From positions 48,834-112,833 of the forward strand of contig JARGFH010000005.1 of assembly GCA_029210695.1 (NCBI GenBank): a stretch of DNA of 64,000 nucleotides. The letters are read 5' to 3'. A model generated the notes under the pieces. It was not told the DNA's origin. It worked only from the letters and a program-made list of their open reading frames with translations, and ran no database searches. The stretch's first letter is position 1, and each line of letters starts with the position of its first letter. This stretch comes from Acidimicrobiia bacterium (GTDB taxonomy: Bacteria > Actinomycetota > Acidimicrobiia > Spongiisociales > JAHEDJ01). Shown here one piece after another: positions 5,089 to 58,047 of this stretch. Both the position numbers and the translations under genes were made by a program.

Positions 5089-5102
5089 TGTCCCCTCTTT
5101 TC

Positions 5103-5154
5103 CGTTTTCGCGCGGGAATCACCCCAAATAGGGTGGGATCCCCGCGCGAAAACG
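5103..5154. repeat. REP-like palindrome, family A, copy 1
   Basis: Perfect 14-bp arms CGTTTTCGCGCGGG ... CCCGCGCGAAAACG between atpD and atpC. Confidence 0.85.
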
Positions 5155-5173
5155 TGGTTTTGGGGGTGCGCTG

Positions 5174-9597: not shown

Positions 9598-9632
9598 GGC
9601 GCCGGTCGCTGGTCGCGAGTCGCGGGTAGCAC

Positions 9633-12600
9633 GTGCCGTCGTTGCACCGTCTTTTCGCACCGATCGTGGTTCTTGCTCTTGTGGCCGCAGCTTGCACCGG
9701 GGCCGCAAACGAAACGACCACGACCACGGCTCCCGTCACCACCCCCACGTCACTCCCACCGGCGGCCACTACGACCATGCCGGCCGTCTACGACGGACCA
9801 CCCCTGTACGTCAACCTGATGTGGCACCAGCACCAGCCGTTCTATCCCAAGGATGAAAACGGCGTCTATACCCGGCCGTGGGTGCGGCTACACGCCACCA
9901 AGGACTACTACGACATGGTCGCCATGGTCGGGAGCTACCCAGGTCTCAACGTCACGTTCAACCTGACCCCGGTGCTGCTGCGGCAACTCGAGGACCTGGC
10001 CGGCGGCGCCAAGGACATCTACTGGACGATGGCCGAACTGCCGGCATCGTCGCTGAGCGACGACGAGAAAACGTTCATTCTCGAGCGTTTCTTCGACGTC
10101 AATCCCCAGATCATCGCTCGCTTCCCACGCTTTCAAGAGTTAGCCGACAGCCGGGGCGGGTCGACCGGCGAAAGTGCCCTGGAACAATGGTCGAGCCAGG
10201 ACTTCCTCGACCTCCAGGTGCTCTTCAACCTGGCCTGGACCGATCCCGACTTCCTGGCGGAGGAGCCGCTGGCAGCCCTCGTAGCCAGGGAGCGCGATTT
10301 CACCGAGGAAGACAAGGTCGTTGTCTTCGGTGAGCACCTGCGCATCATCCAGGAGATCATTCCGCTGCACGCTCGTCTGTGGAAGGAGGGCGTGATCGAG
10401 GTCACCACCACGCCGCTGGCGCATCCCATCCTGCCGCTCATCGCCGACACCGACCTCGCCCTCGCCGGCGATCCCACCGCTCTACTGCCGGACGACCGCT
10501 TCCGGGAGGTCGCCGATGCCGACCAGCACATCGTCCGGGGCCTCGACGAAGCGGAACGGCTCCTCGGGGCCCGGCCTACCGGCATGTGGCCCGGTGAGGG
10601 ATCAGTGGCCGAACTGGTGATGGGCTTGTTCTCCAAAGACGGCGTCGAGTGGGTGGCGACCGGGGAGGACGTGCTGGCCAGGAGCCTCGACCTCGGTTCG
10701 TTCACCAGGAACGCAGATGAAACGGTGGAGCAGGGAGACCTGCTCTACCGGCCGTGGGCGGCCGAGCCGAACCGACCACCCAACGTTGGCATGTTCTTTC
10801 GCGATGTCCGTCTCTCCGATCTGATCGGCTTCGAGTATTCGGGAACCGATCCGCAGGAAGCTGCCGCCGATTTCTTGCAGCGGCTCGAGAACATCCGTGA
10901 CTCACTCGACATGCAGTCCGCCGCCGACGCCGGCCTGCCCTACGTGGTGTCGGTGATCCTCGACGGAGAGAACGCCTGGGAGAACTACCCCAACGACGGC
11001 AAGGATTTCCTCGACGCGCTCTACACCATGCTGACCACGACCGACTGGATCGAGACCATCACGCCGAGCGTGTACCTGGAGCGGTTCGGCGAACCCGAGG
11101 TGATCGACGAGGTGTTCCCGGCTGCGTGGTTCCAGCCGAACTTCGCCACCTGGATCGGAGAGAAAGAAGAAGCGACGGCCTGGGACTACCTCTACGACGT
11201 TCGCCGGGATCTCAGAGCGGCCGAGCAAAGCGGTGACTACGCCGCCGAAGCGCTCGAGGCCGCGTTTGAGACAATGCTCTACGCCGAAGGCTCCGACTGG
11301 TTCTGGTGGTACGGCGCCGACCAGGAATCCGGCGACGACGGCTACTTCGATCGCGCCTACCGTGAGCTGCTCGGGCAGGTCTACGACCTCCTCGACCTCG
11401 CGCGGCCGACCTTCATCCAGGTCCCGATCATCCCCCAACTGCCAGTGGTGGCGGACCAGCAACCCGCCGATCTCCTCACCGTGACGATCGACGGTACGAG
11501 GGAGGACGCATGGGACCGGGCGGGAGGCTACGGCGACACGGTGCCGGGAGGAATCGACTGGGCCTTCGACAAGGAGAACCTCTACTTGTTCGTCGGCGTA
11601 GGCGCAGGTAGTCGATTCGACATCTACCTGGGCGCGCCGTCCGGCTCGAGCAGGCCCGTGACCGAGTCGGGAGCGGTGCTGGGCTTTGGAGCGACCCACG
11701 TTCTTCGCTGGGACGGTGCGACGAGCTGTGTCGAAGCGCCGATCGGACCTACTCCGGATCCTTGCCTGCCGGTTGCCGGCGCGGTTCTCGAAGGTGGCGG
11801 TATCGAGTTCGCAGTGCCGCTGAGCGCGCTCGGTGCGCTCGAACCGGGCGACACGATTCTCGCCAAGTTCGTACAGGGCACGACCCCGTCGCCGGCGGCC
11901 GGACCGATGGCGTTTCAGGTGCCGGACATCTCCAATATCCAGGTGTTTCTCGACGTTGAAGACCCCGTTGGCGATGATCATGGTCCCGGGTCGTACACCT
12001 ATCCGGCCGATGTCGTCTTCCTGACGGGGAGCTACGACCTCAGCCGCTTTCAGGTCGGAACCGAAAACGGAGACCTGGTGCTCACGTTCGAGGTCGTTGC
12101 TCCCATTCAGAATCCGTGGGGTTCTCCCAGGAACTTCTCGGTCCAGACCTTCGACGTATACGTCGATCAGGATCCGGGGGCGGGAACCGGGGCGAGGCTG
12201 CTGATTCCCGGGCGCAACGCCTCACTCGAAGAGGGGGATGGGTGGGAGTACGGCATCACGCTGGAAGGATGGCAACCGGCGATCTATGTCGCCGACGCGG
12301 CGGGGGACCAGGAGGAAACCAGCCCTACGTTCAACGTGACCACGTTCGGGGACAAGGGCAAGGTCGTGGCCAGGATCCCCCTCGAGCTGTTCGGCGGAGG
12401 TGATCCCACCGGCTGGGGCTACGCGGCCGTCGTGCTGAGCCAGGAAGGTTATCCATCAACCGGAGTGCGGCGGGTTCGCGATGTCGAGGGCACCGCACAG
12501 CAGTGGGTCCTCGGTGGGGGACCGGCCGACCTCAACCACACCCGGATCATCGACGTTGCCTATCCCGCAGCCGGCGTCCAGGAGGACGGGCTGTCGGCGT

Positions 12601-12680: not shown

Positions 12681-12691
12681 CCCCTGTTCCT

Positions 12692-12749
12692 CTGCGTTTT
12701 CGCGCGGCATTCGCTCGCCATAGGAAGACATCGCCGCGCCAGAACGCAG
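12692..12749. repeat. REP-like palindrome, family A, copy 2 (imperfect)
   Basis: CTGCGTTTTCGCGCGGC ... GCCGCGCCAGAACGCAG between the convergent GH57 and GH13 genes. Confidence 0.75.
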
Positions 12750-14621
12750 TTAGAACGAGGCGATCAGGCCGGACCAGGGTGGGACTGCGGCGACGCGAAG
12801 GTCGAGCGGTTCGGGCGACACCTCGCCGGTGCCGTGCAGGATATCGACCCGGTCGGCCGTCACCGGGATGAAACAAGACAGAGCCTCCTCGGCTCGATTG
12901 ACGATGACCAGGAGGCGCTCATCTGCGTTCGTTCTCGTGAAGGCGAAGGCATCGCTGTCGAGGTAGACGACCTCGAACGTCCCATACCGGAGGGCGGGGT
13001 GATCTCTGCGGAGCCGGCCCAGAGTCCTGGTCTGGGTCAGGAGATCCTGATTCCACGATTGCTCGTCGTGCCACGGGAAGGCTCCCCGGGATCCGGGGTC
13101 CGATCCTCCGGTCATGCCGACCTCGTCTCCGTAGTACAACCCGGGGGCACCCGGCACGGTCATTTGGGCGAAGACGGCCAGCGCGAGGCGCTGTGCGTCA
13201 TCGCCGGCCATCGTGAGAAATCGCTCGGTGTCGTGGCTGCCGATCAGATTCTGGCTCGCCAGGACGACCTCGGGCGCATACCTCGCATGCATCCGGGTGA
13301 GGCCTTCGACAAAACGGTCGGCGTCGATCGTCGGTTCGGCGAAGAAATCGACGGCCAACTCCCGGAATTGATAGTTCATGGTGGCGTCGAATCGATCCCC
13401 CTGGAGCCACGGCATCGCATCCCCCATGATTTCGGCGATTAGGTACGTGTCCGGGTCGACCGACTTGACGGCCCGGCGGAAGTCGACCCAGAAATCGTGG
13501 TCGATGTAGCGCGCCACATCCATCCGCCAGCCGTCGATGTCGTAGTTGGTAATCCAGTGAGTGGCCACCTCGAGGAAGTACTGCCGGGCATCCGGATTGG
13601 TGAGCACCAATCTCGGCATGGTCGGCACTCGATACCAAGAGGCGAAGGATGGCTCGACCGGTGGGCCGTCATCATCGGATTCGATCAGGGTCAATCCGGA
13701 GGCCTTGATGGTGTTCACCTGGTAGTCCAGGAATTGTTCGGCCCGCTCGCCGTAGAGATCTCGCGCGACGCGCGGCCGGATCTGCACCGTGAGCGGGTAT
13801 GAGTGGACGTCGAACCAATCCCAATAATCCGAAGCGGGGCCATTTGCGATCATGTCCTGAAAAGCGAAGAAGTGCGGATGGCAGTGATTGAAGGAAGCGT
13901 CCAGTATCACCTTGATGTCCCGGGAGTGCAGCGCCTCGACCATTTCCCTCAACGCTTCATTACCGCCCAGGCGTTGATCGACCTCGTAATAGTCGACGGC
14001 GTCGTAGCGATGCACCGACAGTGAACGGAATACCGGGTTGAGATACACGGCATCGATCCCGAGGTCCGCCAGGTAGTCAGCCTTCTGGGCAATCCCACGG
14101 AGGTCGCCACCCTGGAATCGGCGGGGGTGCGGTGGGCTGCCCCACGGGTCGGCGTCGGACGGGGTCAGCGTCGGGTCACCGCTGGCGAAGCGATCAGGGA
14201 ATATCTGATAGATAACTGCGCCGCGTGCCCACTGCGGTACCTCCACGTGCTGCGTCTGCGCCACATCGAGACCCCAGTAGTCGAGGCGCTCGGCCGCGTT
14301 CGTTATGCCGGAAGGAACCAGGTACACGGGTTGATCGCTGCCGAACCGGAGGGCGAACGAGTACTCGAAAGTGGATCCTGCCGGGTCGACGGTTGCCTCC
14401 CAGTAGATGAAACGCCGGTCCTCGGCATAGCGGTCCATGGTCGTGCCGGACCCATCGAGTCGGGCGAGCACCGCTTCGGTGAAACCATGTTCGGTGATGA
14501 GTCTGAAGCGTATGCTTCCGTCTGCTCGGCGCTCGCAGAAGGCAACGTCGGACGGGTCGTAGCGGACGTCGTAGGGGAAGAGATGTCCAGGTCTTCTGTA
14601 GTACTGGTAGACGCGCTCCAC
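12750..14621 (-). CDS. GH13 alpha-amylase family, neopullulanase/cyclomaltodextrinase-like (cytoplasmic)
   Basis: IYQIFPDRFA, GGDLRGI, HRYDAVDY, LDASFNH, DGWRMDVA, AEIMG, LIGSHDTER, YYGDEVGM. Confidence 0.92.
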   Translation of the reverse strand: MERVYQYYRRPGHLFPYDVRYDPSDVAFCERRADGSIRFRLITEHGFTEAVLARLDGSGTTMDRYAEDRRFIYWEATVDPAGSTFEYSFALRFGSDQPVYLVPSGITNAAERLDYWGLDVAQTQHVEVPQWARGAVIYQIFPDRFASGDPTLTPSDADPWGSPPHPRRFQGGDLRGIAQKADYLADLGIDAVYLNPVFRSLSVHRYDAVDYYEVDQRLGGNEALREMVEALHSRDIKVILDASFNHCHPHFFAFQDMIANGPASDYWDWFDVHSYPLTVQIRPRVARDLYGERAEQFLDYQVNTIKASGLTLIESDDDGPPVEPSFASWYRVPTMPRLVLTNPDARQYFLEVATHWITNYDIDGWRMDVARYIDHDFWVDFRRAVKSVDPDTYLIAEIMGDAMPWLQGDRFDATMNYQFRELAVDFFAEPTIDADRFVEGLTRMHARYAPEVVLASQNLIGSHDTERFLTMAGDDAQRLALAVFAQMTVPGAPGLYYGDEVGMTGGSDPGSRGAFPWHDEQSWNQDLLTQTRTLGRLRRDHPALRYGTFEVVYLDSDAFAFTRTNADERLLVIVNRAEEALSCFIPVTADRVDILHGTGEVSPEPLDLRVAAVPPWSGLIASF

Positions 14622-16661: not shown

Positions 16662-16772
16662 TTTTCTCCGCAATGCAATGGCGCGTGGCAATACACAGTA
16701 TTGCGCAGAAACCTGGGTCTGAATTCTCCGCAATGCAATGGCGCGTGGTGATTAACAGTATTGCCGAGAAAA
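16662..16772. repeat. REP-like palindrome, family B, tandem pair 1
   Basis: Two ~50-bp units TTCTCCGCAATGCAATGGCGCGTGG...CAGTATTGC(G/C)(C/G)AGAAA, period ~60. Confidence 0.9.
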
Positions 16773-16803
16773 CAGGCTCCTCGACCCGTTACCCTGCTCA
16801 GCA

Positions 16804-23808: not shown

Positions 23809-24278
23809 TCATTCTCCGGAATTCCGCATTGATGCGGTCAGCTTGGCGAAGTGAGGTCGAACACGAAGCAGACGATTTCGTGGTCGTCGTTGTTCCATCC
23901 GTCTTCGAGCGGGGTGAAGAAAGAGAGGTCGAGCCGGGAGTCGGCGTACTCCGCCCCAACGTAGGCGGCGAAGCGGTCGACGCAGGCCAGGTAGGCGTAT
24001 TCGTTGAGAGCATCCTGGCCCGGCCACGCCTGATCTGGCTCCTCGTGGTCGAAGATGGCGTAGACCTCGTTGTCGTGAGCGACGTCGCACGGCAGCCCCG
24101 GCACGTCTTCGACTTCGATGACGGTGGGATCGTCGAAGCAATCCCCGATCTGGAAATCGGCCACCGGAATTGCCGCCGCTTCCGAAAGGCCTCCCGCGTC
24201 GTTTCGGGACACCGAGTTGCAGGCAGAGGCCACTGCCACGGCCGCGACCGTCAATGCCAGGAATCTGCGGTGGTACAT
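23809..24278 (-). pseudogene. Septum-formation domain lipoprotein with apparent 1-nt frameshift near the 3' end
   Basis: Lipobox VASAC, GDCFD, LPCDVAHDNEV, CVDRFAAYVG, W...IVC; frame stops at 23838 but the adjacent frame continues FAKLTASMRNSGE* to 23809. Confidence 0.6.
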
Positions 24279-24445
24279 CGGTGCTCCTTCGTTGCCGCTC
24301 GTCGCTTGTTGATAACCTACCAAACGGTAAGTTGGCGTTCGGGGCGGGTACTTGTCCTCTACTGGCGCCGGGTGGTGGGGAGCATAATGGCAGTAGTTGA
24401 CAAGAGAGCCACCTAAGGGACGTCGGGAGATCCCGACGAAGATTT

Positions 24446-24570
24446 CCGGGGTGGGGTGGGCTGTGAACGGTGGCGGTACGCCATCCCTCGATGTGTCGAG
24501 GTTCCTCCCCGTTTCGGGCTTCGCATCATGCGACGCCTGTACCGCATCGGGCACACTCACCCCACACCGG
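24446..24570. ncRNA. Candidate structured RNA (long stem closing a three-hairpin junction), family unknown
   Basis: Nested complementary segments read directly; see findings. Confidence 0.4.
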
Positions 24571-24581
24571 ATTCTCAATTG

Positions 24582-25952
24582 TCACACCGGGGGGACTGTC
24601 ACTTTGCTCAGTCCGGCTGCTTCGAGGTAGGCGCCGAAGTCCAGCAAGCGCTGCTCGTGCCACCAGGGACCGATGATCTGCAGTGCGGGAGGTGGCGACC
24701 CTTCGATGGCGAGCGGCACGACGAGCGCCGGCACCGCCGCGTGATTGATCGGTGCCGAGAACCACGAGAGTGCCGACCGGTAGTGAACCGACCCCGACGA
24801 AGAATCCACCGTGTCGCTTCCGATGGTCTTCGTGGTCGTGCACGTGGCGGGCGTCACGATCAGATCGACCCCGGCAAACGCCCGCTCGAAGGACTGCCGG
24901 AGCCGGGCGCGCCAGGCCAGGCCGTTCACGTATTCATCGAGGGTGACCTCATCGGCGCGTTGCATTCGCTGCTCGACCTCCGGACCGTAGTGCTTACCGG
25001 AGGCGCGAAATGAGCGGTGGACGGCGGCCACCTCACCGTAGACCGAGGCGAGGAGGAGATCCGGGGCAACGATGTCGGGAAGCTCGATCGCCTCGATCGA
25101 CACACCGATCCCGTCGAGCGACCGGACTAACCCGTCGAACCCGGCGGTCACTTCGTTGGTCAGGGGCGCATCATCGATCCAGGCGGTCGGGACGCCGATG
25201 CGGAGGCCGTCTGGTCCGCTTTGCGGCCGAACTGCAGGAGCGGGGGAGAACGACGACCAGGGATCTCCGGGGTCGCCACCTGCCATGAGTGAATAGATGA
25301 GACCGGCATCGCCGACCGAGCGTGTGATCGGGCCGACGGTGTCGAGCGAAGGGGCCAGCGGAAAGACCCCCGAGATTGGGATGCGTCCGTGGGTGACTTT
25401 GAGGCCGACCAGCCCGCACAGCGCGGCCGGAACCCGGATCGATCCACCCGTGTCGGTCCCGAGCGCGGCGGCCGCCAGCCCGGCCGCCACCGCCGCTCCC
25501 GATCCGCCGGACGATCCACCCGGTGAGGTGTTCGGATCCCATGGATTCCGCACCGGGCCGAACCAGTGGTTCTCACTGGAGAACCCGAACGCAAACTCGT
25601 GGAGGCCGGTCCGGCCGACCGCAATGGCGCCGGCCGCCTCGAGCCGCCCTACGGCCGGGGCCGTGTGTTCCGGAACCGAACGGTAGAACGACGACCCGGC
25701 CGTGGTGAGGAGCCCGGCCTGGTCGATTAGGTCTTTGACGGCGATGGGCACACCGGCGAGCGGCCCGGGGTCTTCGCCACTCTGGATCATCTCGTCGATC
25801 AATGCCGCCCTGGCCAGTGCCCCTTCGTGATCGACGAGCGTGAACGCGTTCAGCGGTGAGGCATCGATGCGGGCGAGGCAATCGACCACCGTCTCGGTGG
25901 CGGTGATGTCGTGCCTGCGGACGGCCGCGGCCAGCCCGAGCACGTCGTCCAT
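24582..25952 (-). CDS. Amidase signature family protein (GatA-like)
   Basis: GVPIAVKDLI, GGSSGGSGAAVA, GTDTGGSIRVPA. Confidence 0.93.
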   Translation of the reverse strand: MDDVLGLAAAVRRHDITATETVVDCLARIDASPLNAFTLVDHEGALARAALIDEMIQSGEDPGPLAGVPIAVKDLIDQAGLLTTAGSSFYRSVPEHTAPAVGRLEAAGAIAVGRTGLHEFAFGFSSENHWFGPVRNPWDPNTSPGGSSGGSGAAVAAGLAAAALGTDTGGSIRVPAALCGLVGLKVTHGRIPISGVFPLAPSLDTVGPITRSVGDAGLIYSLMAGGDPGDPWSSFSPAPAVRPQSGPDGLRIGVPTAWIDDAPLTNEVTAGFDGLVRSLDGIGVSIEAIELPDIVAPDLLLASVYGEVAAVHRSFRASGKHYGPEVEQRMQRADEVTLDEYVNGLAWRARLRQSFERAFAGVDLIVTPATCTTTKTIGSDTVDSSSGSVHYRSALSWFSAPINHAAVPALVVPLAIEGSPPPALQIIGPWWHEQRLLDFGAYLEAAGLSKVTVPPV

Positions 25953-31593: not shown

Positions 31594-31644
31594 AGTCGCG
31601 AGTCGCGAGTCGCGAGTCACTCGCGACCAGCGACTCGCGACCAG
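31594..31644. repeat. Heptamer array (AGTCGCG)n followed by inverted copies
   Basis: AGTCGCG x3 + AGT, then C-ACTCGCG-ACCAGCG-ACTCGCG-ACC. Confidence 0.9.
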
Positions 31645-43887: not shown

Positions 43888-43892
43888 CCCGA

Positions 43893-44004
43893 TTTCTCCG
43901 CAATGCTGTGTACGGAATTCGCACCATTGCATTGCCGAGAAAACCCGGGTTGATTTCTGCGCAATGCTGTGTACGGAATTCGCGCCATTGCATTGCCGAG
44001 AAAA
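43893..44004. repeat. REP-like palindrome, family B, tandem pair 2 (inverted relative to pair 1)
   Basis: Two units TTTCT(C/G)CGCAATGCTGTGTACGGAATTCGC(A/G)CCATTGCATTGCCGAGAAAA, period 61. Confidence 0.9.
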
Positions 44005-44009
44005 CTCGA

Positions 44010-44855
44010 TCAGCGGGAGCGGCGCCGGTTCCAGCGTCGGTAGAGGTCTACCCAGAGCGGGTCGAATCCGGCCTCGTCGGCGGCCGGCTGATCCTCCACG
44101 GGATCCGGAGTCGCCGGCGTCGTTTGTCCACGGAGTTCCGCCAAGCGCTCCCGGAGGAACACCACCTCGGTCTCGGCTTTGGCGGCGCGTTCCCTGGCAT
44201 CCGCCAACTGCTGGCCGGCCTCGTGGAGGTTGCCCAACTGGTTGAGCATCTTGTTCCACGCATCCAGCGGAACCAGCATCGTGCCTTCAGGGACCTCGGG
44301 CGTGACCGGCTGTGAAACGATTGGTTGTGTTTCAGGGTGATCGGTCGCCGGTTGCTCGTCGCCAGTTGGAGCCTCTTCGGCAGGTTCCGTCGACTGTGCC
44401 TGTACGTCTTCGTCTCCGTCTTCGTCCTTGTCTTCGTCTTCGTCCTTGTCTTCGTCAGACGCGTCCGACCCGCTCGCGTCCACTTCTTCACTAGCGACGA
44501 GCGACTCGCGACTCGGAACTTCTTGACTCGCGACTCGCGACTCGCGACTCGGAACTTCTTCACTAGCGACCCGCGACTCGCGACTCGCGACCTGGGTGTG
44601 CTGGCGCCCCAGGTGATCGGCCCAGGCGATCACCTCGGACAACTCCACGTATCTCCGGTCTCCGGTCTCGTCCAGCTCGAAGCGTGAATCGATGCGCTGC
44701 TTGCGGGCCCAGTTCCGGATGGTCGAAGCGGGGATCCCGGTGAGTTCTCCGGCGTCGTGCAAATCGACCCAGCGTTCGTTGCTTGACGTGTCCTGGGGGA
44801 GCGGGTCGGCCGGTCTGGTTTGCTGGCTGGGGACGGGTCGTCGTGAATCTGTCAT
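44010..44855 (-). CDS. Hypothetical protein: Xis/MerR-like HTH, acidic repeat linker, coiled coil
   Basis: DAGELTGIPASTIRNWARK; repeat linker; LHEAGQQLADARERAAKAETEVVFLRERLAEL. Confidence 0.75.
   Translation of the reverse strand: MTDSRRPVPSQQTRPADPLPQDTSSNERWVDLHDAGELTGIPASTIRNWARKQRIDSRFELDETGDRRYVELSEVIAWADHLGRQHTQVASRESRVASEEVPSRESRVASQEVPSRESLVASEEVDASGSDASDEDKDEDEDKDEDGDEDVQAQSTEPAEEAPTGDEQPATDHPETQPIVSQPVTPEVPEGTMLVPLDAWNKMLNQLGNLHEAGQQLADARERAAKAETEVVFLRERLAELRGQTTPATPDPVEDQPAADEAGFDPLWVDLYRRWNRRRSR
44482..44592. repeat. Three 36-nt tandem units built from GCGACTC heptamers inside a CDS
   Basis: Units begin ACTTCTT at 44482, 44518, 44554. Confidence 0.9.
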
Positions 44856-50784: not shown

Positions 50785-50790
50785 ATCTCG

Positions 50791-50818
50791 AGTCGCGAGT
50801 CGCGGGTCGCGGGTTGCG
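50791..50818. repeat. Heptamer array (A/G)GT(C/T)GCG x4
   Basis: AGTCGCG AGTCGCG GGTCGCG GGTTGCG. Confidence 0.85.
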
Positions 50819-57945: not shown

Positions 57946-57961
57946 GACGCACCCTAAACCC

Positions 57962-58011
57962 GTTTTCGCGCGGGGATCGCACCACCGGCGGTGGAAATCC
58001 CGCGCGAAAAC
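57962..58011. repeat. REP-like palindrome, family A, copy 3
   Basis: GTTTTCGCGCGGG ... CCCGCGCGAAAAC with inner CCACC-GGC-GGTGG hairpin. Confidence 0.85.
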
Positions 58012-58047
58012 AGTCTGGTTGGTCATGTGCAACCTATGCTCGGCGGA

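Follow-up and report, generated by a model that had tools for sequence, protein, structure and literature searches.

A probable new structured RNA gene with a near-invariant three-way junction between the amidase and korA genes of an acidimicrobial genus

Does the 303-nt gap downstream of an amidase gene in an Acidimicrobiia bacterium (GCA_029210695.1) encode a functional RNA and, if so, how might such an RNA act? The gap lies in a 64,000-nt stretch of contig JARGFH010000005.1 (positions 48,834-112,833, forward strand; hereafter the window, to which all coordinates refer), in which an earlier note, made from the sequence alone, had pointed to a 125-nt candidate non-coding RNA with a long stem capped by three hairpins. 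Our analysis indicates that the gap very likely harbors a real, conserved and previously uncatalogued structured RNA gene. The + strand RNA of 24440-24575 folds with a minimum free energy (MFE) of -74.4 kcal/mol, as against -51.5 +/- 4.0 kcal/mol for 200 dinucleotide-preserving shuffles (z -5.68), and because none of these shuffles was as stable the fold can be regarded as real and well past chance. A 197-nt form (24394-24590), which takes in the closing helix described below, reaches -96.1 kcal/mol (z -5.2), and the - strand of 24440-24575 gives -64.5 kcal/mol (z -4.09).

In architectural terms, the RNA forms a closed domain of about 190 nt (approximately 24396-24586), in which a terminal helix, P1, clamps a small hairpin, P2, and a long irregular stem, P3, the latter in turn presenting a three-way junction made up of the hairpin P4, the single strand J4/5 and the hairpin P5 (Table 1). 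The RNA may extend further upstream than this domain. All the stems listed in the earlier note are recovered where it had placed them: its outer and second stems together constitute P3, its CCUCGA hairpin is P4, the extra hairpin that it had set alongside (24421-24438) is P2, and its UCGCA-UCA-UGCGA hairpin is the top of P5. Two of its proposals need revision. First, the size of 125 nt is too small, as P1 encloses both P2 and P3. Second, the middle hairpin, CCCG-UUU-CGGG, is disfavored, given that its bases are unpaired with a probability of 0.7-0.9 in the ensemble and that it competes with the base of P5, which finds support in a divergent homolog (see below). P1 itself is apparent from the homolog alignment, in which GUUGACAACCGG, some 50 nt upstream, is perfectly complementary to CCGGUUGUCA just 3′ of the long stem. 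It is a helix of 10-12 bp that is present in the MFE structures of the window and of all nine other homologs. The version in the window has GAG/CUC instead of CGG/CCG and includes one compensatory double change from G-C to A-U; in two homologs (L033 and L011) P1 contains G-U wobbles, which the - strand would show as A-C.

Ten distinct sequences of the element are available for comparison, namely that of the window, those of four genomes of the same genus and those on five metagenome contigs. Among the six other genomes of the genus, four hold the element, with 82-85% identity, and in the two remaining ones the locus in which it resides is missing from the assembly (in one case the contig ends within korA, and in the other only a paralog is present); where the locus has been assembled, the RNA is present in five out of five genomes. 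An exact-pattern scan with the conserved core of the element returned three species-representative records, all of them duplicates of the same-genus genomes, as well as the five metagenome contigs, and another match from the metagenome scan (L029) was set aside as a chance match. Pairs were counted in a model-fitted alignment (A4) that had been fitted to the + strand model, and in it 93% of the cells form standard pairs, as opposed to 36-46% when the partners are slid by 1-3 columns. Ten pairs have changed on both sides, and none of 500 shuffles attains the covariation score. The collection of homologs for a covariation test, which the earlier note had proposed as a check, has thus come out in favor of its candidate, with both P2 and P3 covarying. 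In P2, both partners have changed in four of the seven pairs, with 97% of the cells paired; in P3, both partners have changed in five pairs and just one of them varies in another seven, the commonest change being a toggle between G-C and G-U. P4 and P5 are uninformative in this respect among the ten sequences because these stems never vary there. For P5, the divergent contig X6, from a sediment RNA library, offers a further comparison: its hairpin is replaced by GGGCGAU-(10 nt)-AUCGCCC, and these letters, read from the loose end of the contig, would amount to two to three compensatory changes that support the base of P5.

The multiple sequence alignment also shows that conservation is very unevenly distributed over the element. 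Just one of the 47 columns of the core at 24474-24520 is variable among the ten sequences, by virtue of one loop base in one sequence, as compared with 27 of 36 columns in the linker and P2 and 12 of 29 in the 5′ strand of P3. This core takes in both junction strands, the whole of P4 with its loop and the first bases of P5, and between the window and X6 the stretch 24474-24519 is identical to the letter, although the flanks of X6 differ. J4/5 within it is invariant in sequence, has a mean unpaired probability of 0.87-0.93 in all ten homologs, and carries the only C-rich run (CCUCCCC) of the RNA, the loops being UGUG and AUCAU. For comparison, the adjacent full-length amidase gene has a DNA identity of 70-73% and a protein identity of 67-73% across the six loci that hold it whole. 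Judging from the alignment, the outer helices evolve freely as long as their pairs are kept, whereas the junction is almost frozen, and the density of constraint in the core appears to exceed what pairing alone would need. The almost letter-perfect retention of 47 bases suggests that the RNA is probably a regulator.

Table 1. Parts of the RNA and neighboring non-coding features, in window coordinates
Feature	Position	Strand	Description
Palindrome ACCTACC-N4-GGTAAGT	24315-24332	unassigned	in all homologous loci; unique in the window
P0, possible hairpin	24352-24388	+	UUGUCCUCU (24352-24360) pairs with a conserved GGAGGAUGA-type block about 20 nt downstream, ending near 24388; uncertain
P1, 5′ arm	24398-24408	+	UGACAAGAGAG in the window, UGACAACCGG in most homologs; holds TTGACA
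P2, small hairpin	24421-24438	+	structure kept, sequence not
P3, 5′ strand of long irregular stem	24445-24479	+	G-rich; pairs with 24539-24571
Near-invariant core	24474-24520	+	inner end of P3, J3/4, P4, J4/5, start of P5; 1 of 47 columns variable
J3/4	24480-24485	+	junction strand, GCCAUC
P4, hairpin	24486-24501	+	CCUCGA-UGUG-UCGAGG; seen in every fold
J4/5	24502-24515	+	single-stranded UUCCUCCCCGUUUC, 14 nt, C-rich, anti-Shine-Dalgarno-like; proposed seed
P5, hairpin	24516-24538	+	GGGCU.CGC / GCG.AGCCU, loop AUCAU; in the MFE structure of all homologs
P3, 3′ strand	24539-24571	+	pairs with 24445-24479; 17 of 33 columns vary, pairing kept
P1, 3′ arm	24572-24584	+	CUCAAUUGUCA in the window, CCGGUUGUCA elsewhere

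The strand from which the RNA is read can be addressed by means of its wobble pairs. On the + strand, the alignment holds 37 G-U cells as against nine A-C cells, and pairs that toggle between the Watson-Crick and wobble states number 13 versus three. This bias towards the + strand is common to P1, P2, P3 and the possible hairpin P0, and the + strand fold is the more stable one in eight of the ten homologs. We therefore uphold with high confidence the + strand origin that the earlier note had favored slightly, likewise from G-U wobbles; it would place the RNA in antisense orientation to both the amidase gene and the lipoprotein and korA genes on its other side. Were the - strand the functional one, the element might represent a 3′ untranslated region of the amidase gene, a terminator, or a leader or riboswitch of the lipoprotein/korAB genes. 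Indeed, it is upstream of genes of the same orientation on that strand, in a riboswitch-like position that the + strand does not offer, its next gene being convergent; the - strand folds well (z -4.1), an aptamer could well have such an invariant junction, one of the RNA-library contigs runs without a break into the amidase gene, and the palindrome further upstream pairs better on the - strand. This alternative is nevertheless improbable, as it would turn the 37 G-U cells into A-C mismatches, leave just the three toggling pairs as opposed to 13, forgo the more stable fold in eight of ten homologs and leave unexplained the wobbles in P1, P2 and possibly P0 that are valid on the + strand only. 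Further, 170-330 nt separate the element from the next start codon, and in three loci a whole extra gene precedes korA.

This last point leads to the genomic neighborhood. To the right lies the amidase gene (24582-25952, - strand; full-length match to Pfam Amidase, E 1e-97), and to the left a gene for a lipoprotein of 146 aa that contains a Septum_form domain (23838-24278, - strand), beyond which follows a gene for a korA-like 2-oxoacid:ferredoxin oxidoreductase. In agreement with the earlier note, the gap has no credible open reading frame (ORF): no frame is kept in the relatives, the alignment showing scattered gaps of 1-2 nt, and the small ORFs on both strands, as well as the short peptide frames after a GGAGG block, were rejected on account of frame shifts between homologs. 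All ten homologs sit between the amidase stop codon and korA. The lipoprotein gene, which stands between the RNA and korA, occurs in the window, in G003 (L010) and in the metagenome contig L033 and is missing from the other seven loci, and it therefore represents a presence/absence polymorphism beside the RNA.

Throughout the taxonomic order, the amidase gene and korA are kept in this sequence and in the same orientation. In 25 loci of other genera (a tally that alone drew upon the genomes G010 and G021) the distance from the amidase stop to the start of the korA alignment is mostly 51-124 nt, with a few spacers of 147-335 nt that are unlike the RNA; in the holders of the RNA that lack the lipoprotein gene the corresponding distance is approximately 450-540 nt and is filled by the RNA. 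Since other genera have a short or unlike spacer, the RNA and the conserved blocks flanking it can be viewed as a gain of the genus-level lineage. In line with this, a covariance model of the element (R1) run against 150 genomes of the order yielded just matches with E >= 0.07 that do not share the core, and a BLAST search with the core in 400 genomes of the class gave a single 44-nt match of 82% identity, in G049 of another genus, which was judged to be due to chance. At that place (L038, 1507-1544) a 38-nt segment resembles J4/5-P5 (UUCCUCCCC...CGCUUCAUGCGACGCCU) in seemingly coding sequence and without the rest of the fold. As a separate observation, the 218-nt amidase-korA spacer of L056 (G014, again of another genus) folds into a highly stable hairpin, about 100 nt in size, whose long arms match almost perfectly and whose sequence is unrelated to that of the RNA.

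An insertion between two genes that otherwise lie close together raises the question as to whether the RNA acts upon its own locus. As a cis-antisense RNA it would act on a complementary - strand transcript running from the amidase gene to korA, triggering cleavage or termination and thereby uncoupling korAB from the amidase gene in this genus. The conservation of the gene pair across the order at short spacing, as against its RNA-filled separation in the holders without the lipoprotein gene, would accord with such a role, as would the overlap of the 3′ arm of P1 with the stop codon of the oppositely oriented amidase gene (TCA, 24582-24584). However, a role of this kind could do without a fold of several covarying helices and without a frozen 47-nt junction, and the - strand read-through on which it depends is only assumed; hence, we consider it an unlikely explanation.

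The insertion could also be seen at the level of DNA, i.e., as a miniature inverted-repeat transposable element (MITE)-like unit that was inserted once along with its terminal inverted repeats, or as a recombination site, with the fold as a by-product. The arms of P1 do resemble terminal inverted repeats of 10-12 bp, the locus is an insertion relative to other genera, and the host genome is rich in dispersed palindromic repeats. However, both BLAST and the covariance model find a single copy of the element in its own 3.9-Mb genome, and a MITE or a repeat of the repetitive extragenic palindromic (REP) type is thereby excluded; many dispersed copies were what the earlier note would have taken as the mark of a MITE. 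Additionally, the pattern scan found the element in the genome of no other species, searches of phages, plasmids and viral contigs gave no match, and a hidden Markov model (HMM) of a dispersed repeat family of the genome, when run against the element, detected no kinship. The covariation compatible with G-U pairs, together with the frozen asymmetric core, points to selection on RNA, and a DNA-level or selfish origin of the pattern appears very improbable.

The repeats of this genome deserve a brief description in their own right. The dispersed family just mentioned has a 57-nt unit with the consensus TGCCCCCTCTGCCTCGAnGACTCGGCATCTCCCCCGC-(4-6 nt)-GCGGGGGAGAAACGCG and 53 nhmmer matches at E<1e-3, often arranged as tandem pairs 150-250 nt apart (e.g., G000:C126:117720-117960, C143:7328-7800, C170:55560-56110 and C137:37460-37720; L069-L071); it has no match in Rfam and no located copy in the window. 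Members of one subfamily end in GGGGGAGGAACGCG and show a complementarity of 10-11 nt to the free GUUCCUCCCCG of the RNA. The window itself contains three palindromic copies of about 60 nt, GTTTTCGCGCGGG...CCCGCGCGAAAAC (family D1; 5096-5159, 12688-12751 and 57954-58017), a unit of about 57 nt that occurs as a tandem pair at two places 27 kb from each other, the pairs being oppositely oriented (16664-16779 and 43891-44008), and arrays of the heptamer (A/G)GTCGCG (31594-31644, 44482-44592, 50786-50817 and 9604-9635).

With regard to the 5′ end of the RNA, the TTGACA at 24397 noted earlier is indeed present in the sequence; however, it belongs to the 5′ arm of P1 and is followed by no -10 element at promoter spacing, and its reading as a -35 element is therefore rejected. 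Alternatively, a CATAAT/GATGAT block (24383-24388) can be read as a -10 box, which would place the start of the RNA near 24396, right at P1. This block is at the same time the 3′ arm of P0, and the -10 reading is therefore left undecided. The arms of P0 are two conserved, mutually complementary blocks with a variable loop between them, which RNAalifold pairs with each other. The hairpin forms on the + strand in most homologs and is weaker on the - strand in eight of nine; 93.8% of its cells are paired, with a covariation that is not significant (118 of 500 shuffles). On the korA side of P0 lies the palindrome of Table 1, after which come a small hairpin, which is variable, and a run rich in T. 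According to a manual reading of the alignment, the variable positions of the palindrome would be U-G wobbles if read from the - strand and C-A mismatches if read from the + strand. The palindrome probably serves as a DNA site for a protein or as a hairpin of the - strand; as such it may be an operator, or a hairpin in the promoter region of the korAB/lipoprotein genes. Further conserved non-coding blocks, such as GGCGGGCCAGTGTACCC and GTCCATCGGTC, occur about 150-350 nt to the korA side of the core, between the palindrome and the korA start (L009, L012, L011, L034, L031 and L032), and may constitute a korAB promoter or leader. In L009 there are two weak terminator-like sites, on the strand that matches the + strand of the window.

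Metatranscriptomes provide a first indication with respect to expression. Words of the core occur in seven runs from seven studies of estuaries and sediments, and contigs assembled from four of these runs (four studies) all cover the element at a depth of 2-7, one of them, of 273 nt, spanning approximately 24326-24597. The other three runs, in which just a small share of the words occurs, were left out of the evidence. These RNA-library contigs, which carry no information on strand or ends, are compatible with expression. In one contig (X7), the sequence that follows 24509 (+ strand) is what we take to be a read-2-type adapter; it would denote + sense only if the library was dUTP (deoxyuridine triphosphate)-stranded, and it was given no weight.

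How, then, might this RNA act? The reading that we favor, tentatively and as a possibility that falls short of probable, is that of a stand-alone trans-acting regulatory RNA which pairs with its targets via the exposed CCUCCCC strand. Under this model, the single-copy gene would give rise to a discrete + strand structured RNA, in which UUCCUCCCCGUUUC of J4/5 is predicted to stay single-stranded. This strand could then pair with G-rich ribosome-binding regions of target mRNAs, and the pairing would block the start of translation, as happens with the C-rich actinobacterial 6C RNA and the Firmicute RsaE/RoxS. A scan of the genome with 10-mer seeds placed 20 of 152 complementary sites of at least 10 bases in start-region-like positions, versus approximately nine of approximately 140 for shuffled seeds, which is about a twofold excess. 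The best candidate target is the leader of a gene for a 1154-aa secreted 5′-nucleotidase/metallophosphoesterase (Pfam; G000:C132), in which CCCGA-CGGGGAGGAACCU, located 11-28 nt upstream of the AUG, is predicted to pair with the RNA over 18 bp, interrupted by a 2-nt bulge, with an energy of -36.8 kcal/mol. The 13-nt block CGGGGAGGAACCU, just upstream of the Shine-Dalgarno (SD) sequence, is kept in both orthologs of the 5′-nucleotidase that were found. We treat this pairing as a lead and not as a result. The leader is also noteworthy for two tandem SD-like boxes, GGGGAGGAACCUGRAGGAGUCAUG, conserved in three genomes (G000:C132:9920-9948; L075:3300-3330 (-); L076:1475-1503), the first box being the best predicted pairing site of the RNA.

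Several observations weigh against a trans-acting pairing RNA, beginning with the candidate target. From the base composition, about one 13-nt complement of this kind would be expected by chance in the genome, the CGGGGAGGAACCU block sits in a leader that is conserved in general, and the query used did not find the 5′-nucleotidase in three of the RNA-bearing genomes. A second site, a 15/16 complement on C158, lies antisense inside an ORF and was taken to be a chance occurrence. As to the RNA itself, the alignment behind the pair counts leans towards the + strand structure to which it was fitted. A consensus scan of both strands of the window detected no promoter or terminator that would define the ends of the RNA. 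The RNA-library contigs are shallow (the depth of 2-7 given above) and one of them continues into the amidase gene; transcription is not proven because DNA carry-over is possible. Finally, base-pairing small RNAs usually keep a seed of 10-20 nt, as opposed to a 47-nt block inclusive of the stem and loop of a hairpin, and the frozen pattern suits a core that binds a protein, a ligand or a cellular machinery at least as well.

This last consideration gives rise to the principal alternative, in which the RNA is a binding or catalytic one, its near-invariant three-way junction offering a binding surface or pocket to a protein complex or small molecule and P1-P3 serving as the scaffold. By analogy with 6S, Ms1 and the Corynebacterium genus-specific CoRP RNA, the candidate partners would include RNA polymerase. 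The 47 near-invariant nucleotides cover both junction strands and an entire hairpin with its loop amidst helices that covary, a pattern reminiscent of aptamers and of ribonucleoprotein RNAs such as the raiA motif (PMC10861870). Further, the helix-clamped ends and the size of about 190 nt are as in 6S RNA, neither 6S nor 6C RNA was detected in the genome, and lineage-restricted RNA-polymerase-binding RNAs do exist in Actinobacteria (PMC11077062, PMC9130861). On the other hand, the RNA has no central bubble of the 6S type and matches neither the 6S nor the raiA model, its locus differs from the Ms1 neighborhood with its HAD-IB hydrolase and oxidoreductase genes, no partner gene is linked to it, and a housekeeping partner would predict a distribution wider than one genus. 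On balance, we regard a binding or catalytic role as somewhat unlikely, albeit almost as likely as the pairing model, and are similarly hesitant about its more specific form, in which the junction would be a new lineage-restricted aptamer, ribozyme, or RNA-polymerase- or ribosome-binding RNA of Acidimicrobiia that was inserted between amidase and korAB.

Irrespective of which of these roles applies, the locus represents a well-delimited RNA gene supported by covariation, with a 47-nt core that remained fixed as the neighboring protein gene drifted to about 70% identity; its core is unusually frozen and its distribution narrow. Acidimicrobiia are abundant in sediments, estuaries and wastewater and are mostly uncultured, and to our knowledge almost no regulatory RNAs have been described in them. 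Should the core pair with ribosome-binding sites, the principle of the C-rich small RNAs of the 6C and RsaE kind would reach a deep actinobacterial branch and a different fold; should it instead bind a protein or a metabolite, it would define a new class of functional RNA. The element would also exemplify how a structured RNA can arise in a single genus via insertion into an otherwise conserved gene pair.

The relationship of the RNA to known families can be considered against this background. A search of the whole window against Rfam, another check that had been proposed beforehand, gave nothing at gathering scores, as did two homologous loci; at E<=10 the region had four weak matches, to two miRNA precursors, G2 and a long non-coding RNA (lncRNA) region, which were read as chance, and none of the known families discussed below was among them. 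ARAGORN found no tRNA, tmRNA or tRNA-like module in 24200-24700. The earlier view of a non-coding RNA outside the known families hence holds, and we assign the RNA to a new family of bacterial structured small RNAs. Its two suggestions of kinship, 6S-like or Y-like, do not stand. Bacterial Y RNA (YrlA) and the retron msr-msd share with the present RNA the pairing of the 5′ and 3′ ends in a helix that closes around hairpins. A Y RNA is excluded, as the 97.9%-complete genome yielded no Ro/TROVE gene (PF05731) and the RNA has no tRNA-like module; a retron is excluded as there is no adjacent reverse transcriptase and the + strand downstream is the antisense of the full-length amidase gene.

Similarly, 6S (RF00013), Ms1 and CoRP are highly structured RNAs of at least 190 nt, and in 6S the 5′ and 3′ ends are also paired. 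In 6S RNA, which binds the RNA polymerase holoenzyme and templates pRNA, a large two-sided central bubble separates the long closing stem from the terminal stem, and the present RNA contains no such open-promoter-like bubble. The 6S model gave no match in the region (E<=10) or the genome (E<=1), although this model responded in only five of 14 control genomes and misses many Actinobacteria. Ms1, at about 300 nt, and CoRP are much longer than the present RNA. CoRP measures 516 nt (PMC11077062), and both are restricted to actinobacterial lineages (PMC9130861, PMC11077062). Ms1 is found next to HAD-IB hydrolase and oxidoreductase genes (PMC9130861), as against the amidase and lipoprotein or korA genes that flank the present element. 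The raiA motif RNA (RF03072), found in Actinomycetota and Bacillota, stands alone in single copy, measures about 200 nt and has an unusually large proportion of invariant nucleotides (PMC10861870). The two RNAs thus have their single copy and high invariant fraction in common and differ in fold and model: raiA, with its six stems and two pseudoknots, is a widespread RNA, whereas the present RNA is confined to one genus. The raiA model found nothing in the region, in the genome or in a further 120 genomes of the order, a weak negative given that the order-level controls were silent as well.

The closest functional parallels may be sought among the C-rich small RNAs. RsaE/RoxS and other Firmicute RNAs with C-rich motifs (RF01820) likewise expose an unpaired, anti-Shine-Dalgarno-like CCCC/CCUCC that would occlude ribosome-binding sites. 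They differ from the present RNA in phylum, size and fold, there is no Rfam match between them, and the conserved block described here is far longer than a seed. The 6C RNA (RF01066; B11 in mycobacteria) is a two-hairpin RNA with C runs in its loops. Its Rfam model has 75 positions, as compared with the approximately 190 nt and the clamped three-way junction of the present RNA, and found no match in the region or the genome; instead of two hairpins with at least six C in their loops, the present RNA has its C run in the junction strand J4/5. However, both are actinobacterial stand-alone small RNAs. The exposed C-rich strands of 6C RNA pair with G-rich regions of mRNAs independently of Hfq, and in this regard 6C RNA offers the best analog of the mechanism that we propose for the junction strand.

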